A DNA stretch of 11,546 nucleotides from a virus (Duplodnaviria; Heunggongvirae; Uroviricota; Caudoviricetes): the IMG/VR virus record IMGVR_UViG_2703718868_000005. The stretch is one strand, 5' to 3'. Below the pieces are notes generated by a model. The model ran no database searches and was not told where the DNA came from. It worked only from the letters and a program-made list of their open reading frames with translations. Made by a program: the position numbers and the translations under genes. This document shows positions 2,213 through 10,099 of the stretch, piece by piece. How positions within the stretch are numbered: position 1 is the stretch's first letter; every line of letters begins with the position of its first letter.

Positions 2213-3262
2213 TTACCCGAGCACGCCAGTCGCAAAGGCGTGATCAAGAAAACGAAAAATTAACTCAATCTGAGAGCCGTACTTTTTCTCAAACTTCAGC
2301 GGGTCTGCATGAAGTTCGTTGTGGTGCTCCCGGCACAACGGTAGCGTGAAAATATCGTGGGCCTTTGTTCCCACTCCCCCCTGACCATGACCAATCAGGT
2401 GATGCGGATCGTCAGCTGGCTTACCACAACACGCACACGGCTGTGTCTTTACCCAGCGCGTGTATTTCTCATTAACCCAACGGCGACGTTTAGGCCGCCT
2501 CATGAACAATTCAGGAGACTCCGGATCAACGGCGATACTGACAACCGTTTTTTTCTGTGGTGGATTTTGTTGCTGGTGGACGTGAAGTGGCAGCGCAATA
2601 TTTTTTGTGCGCTGCTTCAGTATGCTGATGGCTGTCTGTTCTCCCGGTACGATGTCACTCTCACGGTATACGGAGCGGATTTTTTCCGCTGGTAATCCCA
2701 GCGAACGACGCGCTACTGCCTCAGGTAGTGCATCCACCACCTGATTGCAGGCCGCCCACCAGGATAATTCGGCCAGCGATAACTCCCTCTCCTGCGTACC
2801 GCTTATTGCGTGACGGATGACATCAATCATCCAGGCAACCAGATTCTGCTGAGCAAGTTGATCGAGTGATTCTGATGTCTGGTCGCGCAGCTGGTTGTCA
2901 CAGTGCCAGCACAACACCATCGCGCCGGTACCATAACGGTGAATGACGGTTTCGCTGTGATGATAATCGCCGTGTGGCCACTGGCAGGATTTCACGTGAC
3001 GTAATAACCAGTCAGACAGTGCACCTGCACCACCTGCTGCACGAATAACCCGCTCATCGCTGAAAAATGGCAGTAATGTTTTATCCTCTGCCAGCGGCTG
3101 GCGAACGGCAGGAACGACTCCGGACGGCAGACCGCGCATGTTTTTCGGTTCCGGCTCCACCAATATTCTGCCGTTATGGAATACTGACATTGATTCACGG
3201 CCTGGCTTAACGATAACCAGACCGAGTTCCGGTACCAGAACAGGTCGAAGTAATACCCGCAC
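2213..3262 (-). CDS. DUF968/YdfU-like prophage protein with a C-terminal HNH-like Cys/His motif (CACCGKP...HHLIGHG...CREHHNELH)
   Basis: 349-aa ORF (GTG start; alternative ATG at 3190). The C-terminal Cys/His cluster and the position upstream of rusA and Q match YdfU-type proteins of Qin-like prophages. Confidence 0.75.
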   Translation of the reverse strand: MRVLLRPVLVPELGLVIVKPGRESMSVFHNGRILVEPEPKNMRGLPSGVVPAVRQPLAEDKTLLPFFSDERVIRAAGGAGALSDWLLRHVKSCQWPHGDYHHSETVIHRYGTGAMVLCWHCDNQLRDQTSESLDQLAQQNLVAWMIDVIRHAISGTQERELSLAELSWWAACNQVVDALPEAVARRSLGLPAEKIRSVYRESDIVPGEQTAISILKQRTKNIALPLHVHQQQNPPQKKTVVSIAVDPESPELFMRRPKRRRWVNEKYTRWVKTQPCACCGKPADDPHHLIGHGQGGVGTKAHDIFTLPLCREHHNELHADPLKFEKKYGSQIELIFRFLDHAFATGVLG

Positions 3263-3263
3263 G

Positions 3264-3533
3264 TTACCTCCAGATGCGCTGCTGGAATGTGCGGGACGGA
3301 CGCGGTGGGCGTTCGGAATAAGGGAGCCTGACGGAGATTATCCAGTGACGACGATCGAAGCTGAGGGCTTTCTCAAACTCATATCCGCGCCTGCGGTAAC
3401 ACTGGATCAGCCATTCGGCCTGTTCTTCAGTGCATGGGGGATGCTGGAACCAGTCGGTTTTAAATACGTGCGAACACCGCCCTTGCCTACTGGCAAGGGC
3501 GGCAGAATTGTGCAATCTGCTATCGTGCGCCAT
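3264..3533 (-). CDS. Hypothetical protein with a possible CxH...HPPC metal-binding motif
   Basis: ATG at 3531-3533 with GGAG about 7 nt upstream. Stop abuts the start of the DUF968 gene, suggesting coupling. ORF-track frame extends to GTG at 3551. Confidence 0.5.
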   Translation of the reverse strand: MAHDSRLHNSAALASRQGRCSHVFKTDWFQHPPCTEEQAEWLIQCYRRRGYEFEKALSFDRRHWIISVRLPYSERPPRPSRTFQQRIWR

Positions 3534-3586
3534 CGGGATCTCCGGTGGCACGGTGTTTCTCAGCGACGGTTCAAGTCAGCCTGATT

Positions 3587-3814
3587 TTATAGCTGCTTCT
3601 GAATATCATCAACAGGTAATCCTGCCAACTCTCTTACCTCAGAAAGAAGAGAAAGGCTTACAACAACCTCATTACTTCGCATAACAAAACCACATTGAAA
3701 AGAACCATCACTGTTTCTGTAAACAACAACCGGGCGCATGCTCTCATAAAACCCCGGGATCAAACTGGCTGGGATTTTCACAACACCTCCTGACGTAAAG
3801 GAAATGAAATGCAT
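3587..3814 (-). CDS. Hypothetical small protein with an AbrB/MazE/SymE-like motif (GGVVKIPASLIPGF...SDGSF)
   Basis: 75 codons from ATG 3812-3814; ORF-track frame starts at GTG 3859. The motif resembles swapped-hairpin (AbrB-fold) proteins. Occupies the position of rem in K-12 Qin. Similarity not verified. Confidence 0.4.
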   Translation of the reverse strand: MHFISFTSGGVVKIPASLIPGFYESMRPVVVYRNSDGSFQCGFVMRSNEVVVSLSLLSEVRELAGLPVDDIQKQL

Positions 3815-3979
3815 TATCGCTTCTCTCGGACTATAACCATGAAAAGAGACGCATTTCACTCAGTAAATCTGAGGATTTTATGCGCAAGAACAATGACTTT
3901 TTCTGTCTGCCGTTTATACAATCTGAATTACGTCTGTTTTTTGAACACCGATAAATCAGCAAGCATTCTCAAATAAAGA

Positions 3980-4037
3980 TTGCCTCCATAGTCCACATGG
4001 TGTAACACTATGTGTTATATAAAATGCAGAGGCAGGT
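3980..4037 (+). promoter_or_regulatory. Putative promoter/operator of the type II TA operon
   Basis: TTGCCT -35-like element (3980-3985), TATAAA -10-like element near 4018-4023 and an imperfect inverted repeat GTAACAC-N3-GTGTTAT (4002-4018) lie just upstream of the toxin SD GAGG. Typical site for antitoxin autoregulation. Confidence 0.35.
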
Positions 4038-4410
4038 ATGCGAATTTTCAAAAACGCCTGGTTTGAACGTTTCGCCCGAAAACATCGGATTTCCGATAAA
4101 TCGCTGCGCAAAATCGTGGAACAGGCCGATAAGGGGGATCATATCCGCAAATTTGGGTAGTGGTGTCATTAAACAAAGATTAGCCCGAAGTGGTGGCGGA
4201 AAATCAGGCGGTTACCGGACAATAATTTTTTACCGCGTTGCAGAAAAAGCCTTTTTCATCTACGCATACGCAAAGAATGAACGAGAGAATATCACTGCTA
4301 TAGAGGAAAATGCTTTTCGAAAAGCCGCTCCCCATGTCCTCAATCTTACTGATGAACAGCTGGCACAATTGATTCAACAAGGCCAGTTCACGGAGGTACC
4401 CAATGAGTAA
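4038..4410 (+). pseudogene. RelE/ParE-superfamily (HigB-2-like) toxin gene, frameshifted at a G5 run (4133-4137)
   Basis: Frame from ATG 4038 gives MRIFKNAWFERFARKHRISDKSLRKIVEQADKG, then a TAG at 4158. The rest of the toxin (IISANLGSGVIKQRLARSGGGKSGGYRTIIFYR...FFIYAYAKNERENIT) continues in the +1 frame to the stop at 4408-4410. Removing one G restores a single ORF of about 123 aa. Confidence 0.7.
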
Positions 4411-4720
4411 AAATTACCGCAGTGATGCACTTGCATCTGTACATGAAATGATGGAGTCACTCCATGATATCGGTGCAATCACAAAACAAACTATGCGCGA
4501 ATTCGATGAAACTTGTCTTCAGCCTGCGCCGGTAATGTCTCCGGAAAGGATCCGTGCACTGCGAGAACGAGAGCATCTGTCTCAACCTGTTTTTGCCAGA
4601 TACCTCAACGTCAGTAAAAACCTGATATCAGACTGGGAACGAGGAGTGAAACGCCCGGGAGGTGCAGCTCTTCGGCTTCTTTCAGTTGTCGAGAAAAACG
4701 GGATCCAGGTAATATCCTGA
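4403..4720 (+). CDS. HTH-type antitoxin (HigA-2-like) partner of the upstream toxin
   Basis: 105 aa. ATG overlaps the toxin stop (ATGAGTAA) and SD GGAGG sits 6 nt upstream. Motifs SQPVFARYLNVS...DWERG...PGGAALRLL match antitoxins paired with HigB-2-type toxins. Confidence 0.85.
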   Translation: MSKNYRSDALASVHEMMESLHDIGAITKQTMREFDETCLQPAPVMSPERIRALREREHLSQPVFARYLNVSKNLISDWERGVKRPGGAALRLLSVVEKNGIQVIS

Positions 4721-4822: not shown

Positions 4823-4978
4823 TTACTCCTCAGGTTCGTAAGCTGTGAAGACAGCGACCTCCGTCTGGCCGGTTCGGATTCGTACCTCGCAGAGGTCTTT
4901 CCTCGTTACCAGTGCCGTCACTATGACGGTTAAACAGATGACAATCAGGGCGATTAACATCGCCTTTTGCTGCTTCAT
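4823..4978 (-). CDS. hokD: Hok-family type I membrane toxin (HokD/RelF-like)
   Basis: 51 aa, MKQQKAMLIALIVICLTVIVTALVTRKDLCEVRIRTGQTEVAVFTAYEPEE, matching HokD/RelF as I recall it. SD AAGGAG upstream. An in-frame upstream ATG at 5035 gives the 70-aa ORF-track frame, at the position of mok. Confidence 0.9.
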   Translation of the reverse strand: MKQQKAMLIALIVICLTVIVTALVTRKDLCEVRIRTGQTEVAVFTAYEPEE

Positions 4979-5026
4979 AGCCTGCTTCTCCTTGCCTTTC
5001 GGCACGTAAGAGGCTAACCTACATGT

Positions 5027-5095
5027 GCAAAGCATGAAATTGGCCTCAGATTAATGTTAAGCGTCCTGCAAGACGCGTAATGTTAACTGGGGCTT
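5027..5095 (+). ncRNA. Possible Sok-like antisense RNA opposite the hok leader (position approximate)
   Basis: Inferred from hok/sok locus architecture. Weak promoter-like TTGCCT-17-TAACCT at 4992-5020 and a hairpin GCGTC-CTGCAA-GACGC at 5061-5076 on the plus strand. Exact ends not determinable from sequence alone. Confidence 0.2.
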
Positions 5096-5249
5096 TTCTC
5101 TGTCTGCCTTACGGCGGCATGCCCGAGGCAGACAGCCTCAAGCACCCGCAGCAATTCTACTTAACTCTTCTTTCCCCGCAAATCATTTTATCCCCGATGG
5201 TAATGTTCTCCCGATATGGGAATTCCCATATCAAGGTTAACTCAATCGG

Positions 5250-5801
5250 TTAAAGCTCCATTAATTTTCCGGCCAGTTCATCTCGTGGCATTACCAACCA
5301 TCCGCGCGATTTAAGCAAAGCCAGGGCTTCTTCAACCGTCACCAGCTGGCCAGGCGCATCACTTCGGATGAAGGCGGTTTTATCGTCACGGATCGCCAGG
5401 TGAAAATCGATATTCATTTTTCCCATAGCCCGCTCTTTCTCGTACTGGTTGAAGTAACTGTCTTCGAGTTTTTCGAATACTTCCCACGCCTGATCGGTTT
5501 CGAGCATTTTTGCATGACGGGCTGCTCCGCGTTCTGTCCAGAGGATGAGAGTGCGGGTTTTGGGAGAAATTTTCACCTCATTTTGCGACTCGTTTAAAAC
5601 TAGTCGCAAATTTTTGAGCTCATCACCAACAGCTTTAAAGAAGTGTTTTCCCTCAATAAATCGAGATTTATTTTCATGGTGATTCTGCTGTATACGGATT
5701 GCTTCTGTTCCGTAAAGGCGGGCGAGTAACTCAGTTGTGATTACAGGAATCTGGTTATAAGTGACAGGGGAAAGGTTTTTGACAGTAACTTGAGTCGTCA
5801 T
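5250..5801 (-). CDS. ORF6N-domain (KilA-N/antirepressor-like) phage regulatory protein
   Basis: 183 aa. N-terminal motif IPVITTELLARLYGTEAIRIQQNHHENKSRFIEGKHFF and later LILWTERGAARHAKML resemble ORF6N antirepressor domains. SD GAGGG about 8 nt upstream of the ATG. Confidence 0.75.
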   Translation of the reverse strand: MTTQVTVKNLSPVTYNQIPVITTELLARLYGTEAIRIQQNHHENKSRFIEGKHFFKAVGDELKNLRLVLNESQNEVKISPKTRTLILWTERGAARHAKMLETDQAWEVFEKLEDSYFNQYEKERAMGKMNIDFHLAIRDDKTAFIRSDAPGQLVTVEEALALLKSRGWLVMPRDELAGKLMEL

Positions 5802-5962
5802 GATAACGCCCTCTGGTTGATGAATTTAACTATCACCACCTTCAGGTCTCAATCATCAGGTGGCGAGACGTACAGGGTTGAGACTACCGGATCAACCAAC
5901 CGGCCAGCCTTTCGGCTGCCCCATACGCCTCACCATAATTCAGATGTGCGTGCGCATACGAC

Positions 5963-5987
5963 AATAAAAAACACGCTCGCGGCGTGT
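5963..5987 (-). terminator. Rho-independent terminator ending the replication-side operon
   Basis: Minus strand reads ACACGC-CGCGA-GCGTGT followed by TTTTTATT. Confidence 0.6.
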
Positions 5988-6072
5988 GTCTGTCGCGGTT
6001 GAATATCCGGGGTCTCAATCCCGACGGTCAACTCGACCGTGCGGTGAATATAGCCCCGGATTAGTAATTACG

Positions 6073-7935: not shown

Positions 7936-8943
7936 CTACCCCCTGAAACCCGGCGGAATTTCGGTATCCGGTTCAGAAATATGATTCACGCAACGCTGCG
8001 CGGGACCACGCCACAGTCGAATAACCAGTTCATCCCATTTCTCACGGAGTTTTTCCGGGCTCTTGATGTTTTTTATCCAGAACGGATCCCGTTGTGCCCG
8101 GCTGAACATTTCGCAAATTTGTCTGTGACTTCTTCCATCCAGCATCCGCATTGTGCGCACGTCATTGGCCCACGCCGTCCAGTTGGGCTCTTTCGGTCGC
8201 GTGATCTCACCATCGTCACTGGCAGCCTGTTCGTACAGGTTTACAACCCGCCCCCAGATCCACTGCGCACATGTCAAATCCTCCCGGGTTCCCCACTGGC
8301 GTTTTTTCACGCTGAACACAACAGCATCAGGATGGCGGGTTAAAAACGCCTGTTCAGCCGTCAACTCGTCCGGTTGCGAAGCGTCCGGACAAGAGAGTTT
8401 TTTATTCTCTGTTGTATTCTCTGTTGTATTCTCTGTAGGATCATCGGGCCATTTTGACCTGATGACATTGGGCCGTTTTGAACCAATGGAACGTTTCATT
8501 TTGACCTCTTCCATCGTGTCATTTTGACCTGATGGAGTGGCGCATTTTGACCCGATGGATTCGTTCACTTTGCCATCATCTAAAAGCGCGCTATCGTAGT
8601 TAATTGTGTAAAAATTAGTCATATCACGCTTCGATTTATTGAGCTTTTCGCTACGCAAAAGCCCCAGCGCTTTCAGACTTGCAAACGCACGCTTTAACGT
8701 TGACTCTGACCAGAACGGAAACTGTTCCAGCCATTGTTCCGTTGTGTTGTAAATCCAGCGAACGCCATCACATTCCATGCCGGAACTGGTATCCCTCAAC
8801 CAGTAATGCAGTTGCTGCAACACAATGGCTTCGTTTAAACCAATCTTCATCGCCAGCTGTGTGTTTATAACCAGCGGGCGTTCAGCAAAAAGAAGGCTCA
8901 TAATTCCATCCGGCTTTTTGTTGGTACTGGTGACGATAGGCAC
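7936..8943 (-). CDS. Phage replication initiator (O-like), with origin iterons inside the coding sequence
   Basis: 335-aa frame; start is GTG at 8943 or ATG at 8901. N-terminal domain resembles phage replisome-organiser proteins. Iteron array and AT-rich stretch lie within the gene. Followed by the DnaC-like gene. Confidence 0.85.
   Translation of the reverse strand: MPIVTSTNKKPDGIMSLLFAERPLVINTQLAMKIGLNEAIVLQQLHYWLRDTSSGMECDGVRWIYNTTEQWLEQFPFWSESTLKRAFASLKALGLLRSEKLNKSKRDMTNFYTINYDSALLDDGKVNESIGSKCATPSGQNDTMEEVKMKRSIGSKRPNVIRSKWPDDPTENTTENTTENKKLSCPDASQPDELTAEQAFLTRHPDAVVFSVKKRQWGTREDLTCAQWIWGRVVNLYEQAASDDGEITRPKEPNWTAWANDVRTMRMLDGRSHRQICEMFSRAQRDPFWIKNIKSPEKLREKWDELVIRLWRGPAQRCVNHISEPDTEIPPGFRG
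8403..8436. repeat. Tandem 12-bp repeat TATTCTCTGTTG, about 2.8 copies, in-frame within the initiator gene (encodes TENTTENTTEN)
   Basis: Direct repeats at 8403-8414 and 8415-8426, with a partial third copy at 8427-8436. Confidence 0.8.
8450..8580. repeat. Iteron array (candidate prophage ori): five to six copies of CATTTTGACCYGATGG-like repeats
   Basis: Copies near 8450, 8474 (degenerate), 8497, 8520, 8543 and 8567 (degenerate), spaced about 23 bp, followed by an AT-richer stretch at 8581-8640. Arrangement resembles ori-lambda inside O. Confidence 0.6.
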
Positions 8944-9691: not shown

Positions 9692-10099
9692 ATGAACGAG
9701 AAAACTTTAGGTCAACGAATTAGAGAAAGACGCAAACAGGTTGGTTTAAGTCAAAACGATTTAAGCAAAGCTGCTGGTGTATCTGGCTCATCAATTTCAC
9801 TATGGGAAAGCGACCATACAGCCCCGCGCGGGCAAAATTTGCATCGCCTGGCTGAGGTATTGCAATGTTCACCAACTTGGATACTGTTTGGTGACGAGGA
9901 TAAAACACCAGATCCACCAGTTGCACTCAACAGCGCCTTAGACTTATCGGAAGATGAGTCGGAGATGTTGCGATTGTATCGCGCACTTCCAAAATCAGAG
10001 CAGCAAGCACAGATCAGCGAACTCCGTGCCCGCGTTGAGAATTTTAATCGCCTATTCACCGAGCTACTAGAAGCTCGCAAACGTAACAAACATCAATAA
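9692..10099 (+). CDS. dicA: DicA-like prophage repressor (XRE-family HTH)
   Basis: 135 aa. HTH QNDLSKAAGVSGSSISLWE. Segments LQCSPTWILFGDEDK and RARVENFNRLFTELLEARKRN resemble E. coli DicA as I recall it. Confidence 0.85.
   Translation: MNEKTLGQRIRERRKQVGLSQNDLSKAAGVSGSSISLWESDHTAPRGQNLHRLAEVLQCSPTWILFGDEDKTPDPPVALNSALDLSEDESEMLRLYRALPKSEQQAQISELRARVENFNRLFTELLEARKRNKHQ

Follow-up and report, generated by a model that had tools for sequence, protein, structure and literature searches.

A divergent Rem-like antirepressor candidate and a nuclease-coupled small gene beside a toxin-antitoxin operon in a Qin/Gifsy-like prophage of Shiga-toxigenic Escherichia coli

[quoted passage not shown] Those of the Gifsy group are encoded outside the immunity region, adjacent to dinI, and are controlled by LexA; they bind repressors that are short and non-cleavable, also cross-reacting with those of heteroimmune prophages, and DicA was named as a member of this Gifsy-type repressor group (Lemire et al., 2011, PMC3121763). 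Rem of Qin, which was identified through PSI-BLAST searches started from the antirepressors of Gifsy-1 and Fels-1, lifts the repression of dicBp by DicA 165-fold, while deletion of rem in K-12 changes neither spontaneous nor stress induction (Ragunathan et al., 2023, PMC10448788). In this work, we compare with these systems a short interval of an 11,546-nt viral stretch of DNA (IMG/VR record IMGVR_UViG_2703718868_000005; hereafter, the window), which belongs to a lambdoid prophage of the Qin/Gifsy kind from Shiga-toxigenic E. coli. Over positions 3200–4050, the window is 100% identical to a prophage of the E. coli strain STEC1585.

The minus strand of the window carries Q (1181–1852), the RusA gene (1868–2200), a GTG-initiated DUF968 gene for a nuclease of the YdfU type with a His-Me finger (2213–3262), two small genes which we refer to as gene A (3264–3533) and gene B (3587–3781), hokD/sok (4823–5147) and a gene encoding an ORF6N protein (5250–5801), beyond which the replication, YdaT and Cro genes are found. 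Encoded on the plus strand are a RelE-family toxin/XRE antitoxin (TA) operon (4038–4720) and a DicA-family HTH repressor of 135 aa (9692–10099), which is of the same length as K-12 DicA and 55% identical to it. The resulting order is hokD, TA cassette, gene B, gene A, DUF968, RusA and Q.

The initial annotation had recognized two unassigned minus-strand genes between the DUF968 gene and the TA operon. Both are real, and they are prophage genes unrelated to each other. They are annotated by PGAP as WP_024199763.1 (gene A, 89 aa) and WP_000701092.1 (gene B, 64 aa), fall into phrog_1212 (E 1.7e-36) and phrog_31309 (E 8e-47), respectively, and are labeled in RefSeq as hypothetical proteins with no functional name. 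Their maximal ORFs (3264–3551 and 3587–3859) are longer than the RefSeq extents. For gene A, the family alignment supports the ATG start at 3533. For gene B, in-frame starts also exist at 3814 (ATG, 75 aa) and 3859 (GTG, 90 aa), yet its homologues begin with M-(I/Y)-IP, which corresponds to the GTG at 3781. This codon is preceded at a 4-nt spacing by the Shine-Dalgarno (SD) sequence AGGAGG (3786–3791, minus strand), of which GGAGG is also kept in E. coli loci with a gene B variant of cluster P0204.

We found that gene B is homologous to Rem, a relationship that we regard as near certain from comparison of the protein families. Taken alone, gene B matches the Rem family phrog_340 weakly (E 0.002–0.004, as against 4.4e-21 for K-12 Rem), and the two proteins as single sequences show no significant similarity (BLASTP E 0.27). 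At the level of families, phrog_340 is matched by six of nine gene B family members (best E 7.8e-10), and the gene B family profile aligns with the C-terminal 33–35 residues of Rem (hhalign 95.4%, E 1.9e-8, and 96.7%, E 3.9e-10). K-12 Rem in turn retrieves the relatives of gene B from other genera directly by tblastn (E 4e-8 to 5e-4). The homology is confined to the C-terminal half, where Rem and gene B share the module GF(V/I)(L/M)R..E(F/V)V.SL....E....AG(L/F); the N-terminal halves remain unaligned. The two proteins also differ in length (64 aa for gene B and 83 aa for Rem) and are placed in separate PHROGs families (31309 and 340).

Searching 1.84 billion representatives exhaustively with phmmer yielded a few relatives of 60–80 aa, at 41–53% identity. 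When the family profile was run against 5.8 billion proteins, 153 Enterobacterales proteins were matched (E down to 3e-29), with Serratia, Pantoea, Erwinia, Cronobacter, Citrobacter, Klebsiella, Salmonella and Enterobacter among the genera named. Many of them bear a precomputed assignment to PF27490, named ‘Rem’, while the gene B clusters P0121–P0125 and P0204 have no precomputed Pfam assignment. Early Pfam results for gene B were blank because the model of PF27490 was missing from the Pfam set that we searched, in which K-12 Rem itself is unmatched. Neither this Pfam set nor NCBIfam and PADLOC returned a match for gene A, gene B or a 24-codon ORF discussed below. The PDB sequence search with the family profiles of genes A and B gave no match, and gene B and the adjoining intergenic region had no match in 50,697 GenBank phages (tblastn/blastn). 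The structure model of gene B was too poor for a fold search (pLDDT 66, pTM 0.29).

The genetic context of gene B resembles that of rem. In K-12 and 13 other loci, a small Rem-like gene stands outside the immunity region, with the replication/hok genes on one side and the nin/Q region on the other; in Qin, the order is hok, rem, the ortholog of gene A, ydfU/DUF968 and Q. The claim that the two genes of the window occupy the interval where Qin carries rem thus holds for gene B, but not for gene A, which has its own K-12 ortholog between ydfU and rem. Like rem, gene B is accompanied in the same prophage by a 135-aa DicA-family repressor and has no LexA box upstream, although in the window it is neighbored upstream by the divergent TA cassette, in which it differs from rem. 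No upstream motif common to K-12 rem and gene B was found.

Across the loci with gene B relatives, we determined the order repressor/Cro/YdaT, hok, (RecA)-DinI-Rem, DUF1367 or DUF968 and, finally, Q; in Citrobacter and Klebsiella, the gene directly follows dinI. The accompanying repressors are of the DicA type and count 133–135 aa. A DicA-family repressor (49–98% identity) is present in 12 of 13 such loci, and each of the four E. coli loci examined for gene B has one as well. In the relatives from other genera, both the dinI-antirepressor arrangement and the LexA boxes of the Gifsy systems are seen. The boxes agree with the consensus at 14–18 of 20 positions, where chance alone would give 0.11 boxes per 117 kb. 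In Enterobacter, Pantoea, Erwinia, Pseudescherichia, Superficieibacter, Citrobacter and Klebsiella, they either precede the start codon of the relative by 30–145 nt or are situated ahead of its dinI or recA-dinI operon. By contrast, the window lacks dinI, and no LexA box is found in the whole window, in the P0204-type E. coli loci (L224–L226) or upstream of K-12 rem. Among these E. coli prophage loci, the sole site resembling a LexA box agrees with the consensus at 16 of 20 positions and is located outside the window, at 2463–2482 of locus L001 and also at 4854 of locus L015; it lies upstream of a DNA methyltransferase gene that is itself downstream of Q, away from gene B.

GfoA, GfhA, GftA and Fels-1 FsoA are likewise small proteins, whose genes lie beyond the immunity region, downstream of those for replication. 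Their targets are short, non-cleavable repressors of the GfoR/DicA type, and GfoA and GftA displace the Gifsy repressors. As for Gifsy-1, its gene order (dinI, a gene for a 73-aa protein, nin-like region, Q) is the same as the layout of the gene B relatives. A direct link of gene B to this 73-aa protein of Gifsy-1 (strain LT2) was considered and rejected, since hhalign against the gene B family gave 0.2%; the protein belongs to phrog_4847 rather than to phrog_340 or phrog_31309.

By analogy with these systems, the gene B product probably binds the 135-aa, non-cleavable DicA-type repressor of the window (9692–10099), which would then be displaced from its operators, so that the early lytic promoters would become derepressed. 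In other genera, expression of the relatives is under LexA (SOS) control; the E. coli lineage of gene B, like K-12 rem, has no LexA box, and its upstream region in the window adjoins the RelE/XRE cassette. An antirepressor function of gene B appears to us the likelier case, judged from its family membership and surroundings. We grade homology above function because of the allele pairing and the ORF6N module described below, and because of the lack of similarity with the 73-aa protein of Gifsy-1. Should gene B work as an antirepressor, it would constitute the induction switch for a group of Qin-like prophages with repressors that RecA does not cleave; the Shiga-toxigenic E. coli that carry such prophages include O26:H11 11368 and some O157:H7 strains. 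The Rem family would then extend to a subfamily currently annotated as “hypothetical protein”. The presence of LexA boxes in other genera and their absence for both E. coli rem and gene B bear on the question of the inducing signal raised in the study of Rem.

The gene B allele of the window occurs also in loci L015–L017, where it is paired with a second repressor allele, the two repressors being 54% identical to each other. In the same manner, an identical Rem allele of Citrobacter (locus L219 compared with L220 and L221) is accompanied by repressors showing 51% and 70% identity to DicA. Such sharing of one antirepressor-like allele among divergent repressors fits cross-reactivity but also the absence of functional pairing. 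The occurrence of identical alleles with DicA-family repressors of only 51–70% mutual identity recalls the cross-reacting antirepressors of the Gifsy prophages.

This observation bears on another explanation, which we consider unlikely though deserving of attention, namely that gene B is a relic of the Rem fold or has some other role and does not act on the resident repressor; induction would then proceed via the ORF6N module or by bistable switching, as in the Rem-independent induction of dicBp in K-12. It agrees with the lack of a LexA box or an evident regulated promoter for gene B, with the association of one allele with repressors only 54% identical, with the nearby ORF6N gene and its C4/IsrK-like RNAs, with the unchanged spontaneous and stress induction of the K-12 rem deletion (PMC10448788) and with the rarity and near-invariance of gene B: the region 3552–4037 is contained, at an identity of at least 98.8%, in 169 of 5426 complete E. 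coli genomes (about 3%), and gene B is an accessory insert in prophages. A relic, however, is hard to reconcile with a Rem-like family kept at 35–55% identity over at least eight genera, whose members retain their position, LexA boxes and the company of a DicA-type repressor within one prophage, or with the fact that in every copy examined the gene B ORF is intact and preceded by a strong ribosome-binding site.

The ORF6N gene, located 1.4 kb from gene B, encodes a protein of the type named ‘anti-repressor’. We observed Rfam matches upstream of it on the minus strand, to C4 antisense RNA (5856–5940), isrK (5966–6040) and the c4 target a1b1 (6004–6053); together with these C4/IsrK-like RNAs, the gene looks like an RNA-controlled antirepressor module of the P1/Gifsy-1 kind. 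The Ant proteins of P22 and P1 and the ORF6N/KilA-N proteins achieve the same end effect as proposed for gene B, i.e., inactivation of the prophage repressor, but are unrelated to it in sequence and size and are controlled by antisense RNA. The prophage may, therefore, encode two antirepressor systems.

Between gene B and the TA operon, positions 3828–4037 of the window show 68% identity with the sequence that precedes the same TA pair in prophages of the SLK172 type, which do not carry gene B. Positions 3782 to about 3945 are homologous to what lies upstream of a variant of gene B in loci devoid of the TA cassette. Common to these three contexts, which differ on one or both sides, is a 30-nt core (3876–3905, TTTTATGCGCAAGAACAATGACTTTTTC in the window, given here with no strand assigned) of the pattern TTTTATG.G.AA..ACAATGACTTTTT, which also occurs at about 3049–3078 of the SLK172 locus (L003) and, on the opposite strand, at about 8876–8905 of locus L224. 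The core was not found upstream of K-12 rem. It overlaps the 24-codon ORF and the −35-like ATGACT of a promoter-like site on the plus strand (3893–3922, recognized by a promoter scan), and is probably a cis-regulatory element. Toward gene B, a second promoter-like site (GTGAAA, 18 nt, TATAGT; 3830–3859, minus strand) was recognized by its match to the consensus, which is not above chance; its hexamers are kept in SLK172. Directly upstream of the toxin start, there is an inverted repeat, TAACAC-TAT-GTGTTA (4003–4017), largely conserved in the SLK172-type homologue, which could be a candidate operator of the XRE antitoxin. Other analyses of this region gave no signal: promoter and terminator scans stayed at the chance level, no Rfam families were matched in 3782–4037, the repeats in 3780–4045 were unremarkable, and RNA folding of 3925–4045 was no better than that of shuffled sequences (z = −0.57). 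The 16-mer scan of IMG/VR returned mostly chance matches, and the intergenic region is represented by two sequence groups only.

Given this arrangement, one may imagine that in the E. coli lineage the SOS-box promoter is missing and gene B is fed from the conserved divergent region shared with the RelE/XRE cassette, so that the TA antitoxin, through its state, or some other signal independent of SOS would gate antirepressor synthesis and with it induction; gene A, as a separate part of the same proposal, could be an inhibitor dedicated to the DUF968/YbcO-type nucleases or else their specificity subunit. Taken as a whole, we regard this combination as improbable.

Within the same intergenic region, the initial annotation pointed to a 24-codon plus-strand ORF (3880–3954, MRKNNDFFCLPFIQSELRLFFEHR) with a near-ideal SD sequence. 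The ORF is indeed present, with its ATG at 3880, stop codon at 3952–3954 and the motif GAGGA at 3871–3875; the spacing, however, is 4 nt and not 5 nt as stated, and the occurrence of such an ORF does not exceed chance. In the window, there are two ATG-initiated ORFs of 20–60 codons with a strong SD sequence, i.e., the 24-codon ORF and hokD, while first-order Markov simulations expect 2.17 ± 1.5 per window. Conservation, which had been put forward as a check, speaks against a gene: in the SLK172-type homologue the ATG is kept while the SD sequence and stop codon are lost, and locus L019 carries a 1-nt insertion. The near-identical group shows three nonsynonymous and two synonymous variants in the ORF, and the mismatches by codon position (8/2/7 and 10/7/8) show no third-position excess. 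No family match was obtained in PHROGs, Pfam, NCBIfam or PADLOC, and the plus-strand promoter-like site is situated inside the ORF, downstream of its ATG. Most likely, the 24-codon ORF is incidental and untranslated, and we judge it to be no gene.

That this ORF, or a small minus-strand ORF overlapping it, is instead a genuine micro-protein or leader peptide controlling the TA operon or gene B seems to us quite improbable. Such a view could draw on the ATG and first eight codons, which are kept in the SLK172-type and P0204-type sequences, with a synonymous double change from CGC to AGA among them, and on a 56-aa ORF called on the gene B strand in L224. Against it stand the unconserved SD sequence and stop codon and the frame-breaking insertion in L019, the mismatches with no excess at third positions, the position of the best plus-strand promoter-like site past the ATG, and the lack of family matches for the small ORFs; moreover, a frameshift disrupts the 56-aa ORF in both L225 and L226. 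In one E. coli genome, this 56-aa ORF (8795–8965 of L224) directly precedes the variant of gene B, and it has the motif R.KKSL(W/F)L.IK..DL in common with a 43-codon minus-strand ORF of the window (3831–3962).

Gene A, unlike gene B, belongs to the DUF968-RusA-Q block. Its stop codon lies 1 nt ahead of the GTG of DUF968, and its last codons (ATC TGG AGG TAA) hold the ribosome-binding site GGAGG of the DUF968 gene; the DUF968 gene follows at a fixed offset in all of the 75 IMG/VR loci with gene A. Gene A is thus translationally coupled to the DUF968 gene. In our search, gene A pooled 137 clusters, every named one of which comes from Escherichia or Shigella, and the conserved core of the family reads FK.DWFQHPPCTEEQAEWLIQ.YRRRGYE..K.LS.D.RHWIISVRLPYSERPPRPSRTFQQRIWR. 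A homologue of 66 aa in Superficieibacter overlaps the start of a 98-aa YbcO/DUF968-like gene. Qin of K-12 encodes an intact ortholog of 92 codons between ydfU and rem with 71% identity; it is located at 3307–3585 of locus L005 (about 1644306–1644584 of NC_000913.3, minus strand) and is not listed in the RefSeq feature table.

DUF968 and YbcO represent one group of His-Me finger nucleases (PMC5714182). Gene A resembles the small genes of the nin region in that it is positioned directly upstream of such a group-7 nuclease gene (DUF968, or YbcO-like in locus L014) and lies within the nuclease-RusA-Q block. A possible parallel is offered by DLP12, where ninE, a small nin-region gene, precedes ybcO, a His-Me finger nuclease gene. 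The structure model of gene A (moderate, pLDDT 70) consists of a beta-alpha-beta-beta unit with a basic tail and matches generic folds only, with a single structural lead to Orf QD1 of phage N15, itself uncharacterized, and no functional homologue was found in Pfam, NCBIfam or PDB. From its coupling and position, the most likely role of the gene A product is that of a partner or modulator of the DUF968 nuclease, with which it would act within the DUF968-RusA-Q block. As gene A is widespread, missing from the annotation of K-12 MG1655 and strictly coupled to the uncharacterized YdfU/DUF968 nuclease, the pair forms a natural unit for joint study.

The first description of the interval went further, envisaging a small regulatory or defense-associated module. 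Its proposed metal-binding motif in gene A (CxH...HPPC) is contradicted by the alignment of 25–34 homologues, in which two of the four proposed ligands vary: H31 and C34 are near-invariant, whereas the first cysteine alternates among R, Y, H and C and the later one among C, N, S, A and G. The AbrB/SymE-like motif did not find support either, as gene B and eight relatives are unmatched by the SpoVT_AbrB and SymE_toxin Pfam profiles at E ≤ 10. PADLOC models matched none of gene A, gene B, the 24-codon ORF and DUF968 at E ≤ 1. What can be retained is the regulatory part in a broad sense, with gene B as a candidate antirepressor of the Rem family, but neither the defense association nor the three-part module.

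The notion that a metal-binding protein, a protein resembling AbrB/SymE and a translated peptide of 24 residues make up a regulatory or defense module is, in our view, largely refuted and highly improbable. It could appeal to the adjacency of the three features beside two toxin-antitoxin loci and to the start of gene B (V/M-x-IP-x-x-L-I-x-G), which superficially resembles AbrB-type strands. In addition to the lack of PADLOC matches, of AbrB/SymE Pfam matches in nine members and of conserved metal ligands, the components do not travel together: gene A is found without gene B in 69 of 73 loci, gene B variants exist with no TA cassette and the TA cassette exists with no gene B, and gene A is part of the DUF968-RusA-Q block while gene B is an accessory insert. 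We thus favor, with reasonable though not strong confidence in the combination, gene B as a divergent Rem/PF27490 antirepressor, gene A as a nuclease-coupled partner or modulator, and the 24-codon ORF as an untranslated chance occurrence. So read, the interval adds a divergent Rem-family member, a nuclease-coupled small gene and a chance ORF to a kind of system that is already known.

The slot between hokD and gene A is variable. In most loci it is empty, with about 170 nt separating hokD from gene A; elsewhere, the slot is occupied by rem (K-12), by gene B or, in SLK172, by a phrog_1813 gene. The latter is an unannotated 70-aa ORF (2755–2967 of locus L003, minus strand; phrog_1813 E 7e-16) beside the same TA cassette. 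In the window, type I and type II TA loci are adjacent as in K-12 Qin, where the type II pair is relBE instead. The type I locus, hokD/sok, is supported by matches to Hok in Pfam (E 3e-23) and to sok in Rfam (117 bits). The RelE-family (PF06296) toxin gene (4038–4410) of the type II pair contains an extra G at 4133–4137 (GGGGG, compared with GGGG in O26:H11 11368), which splits it into 4038–4160 and a second frame ending at 4410, and its RefSeq annotations differ; the toxin is probably inactivated in the strain of the window and in RM10466.
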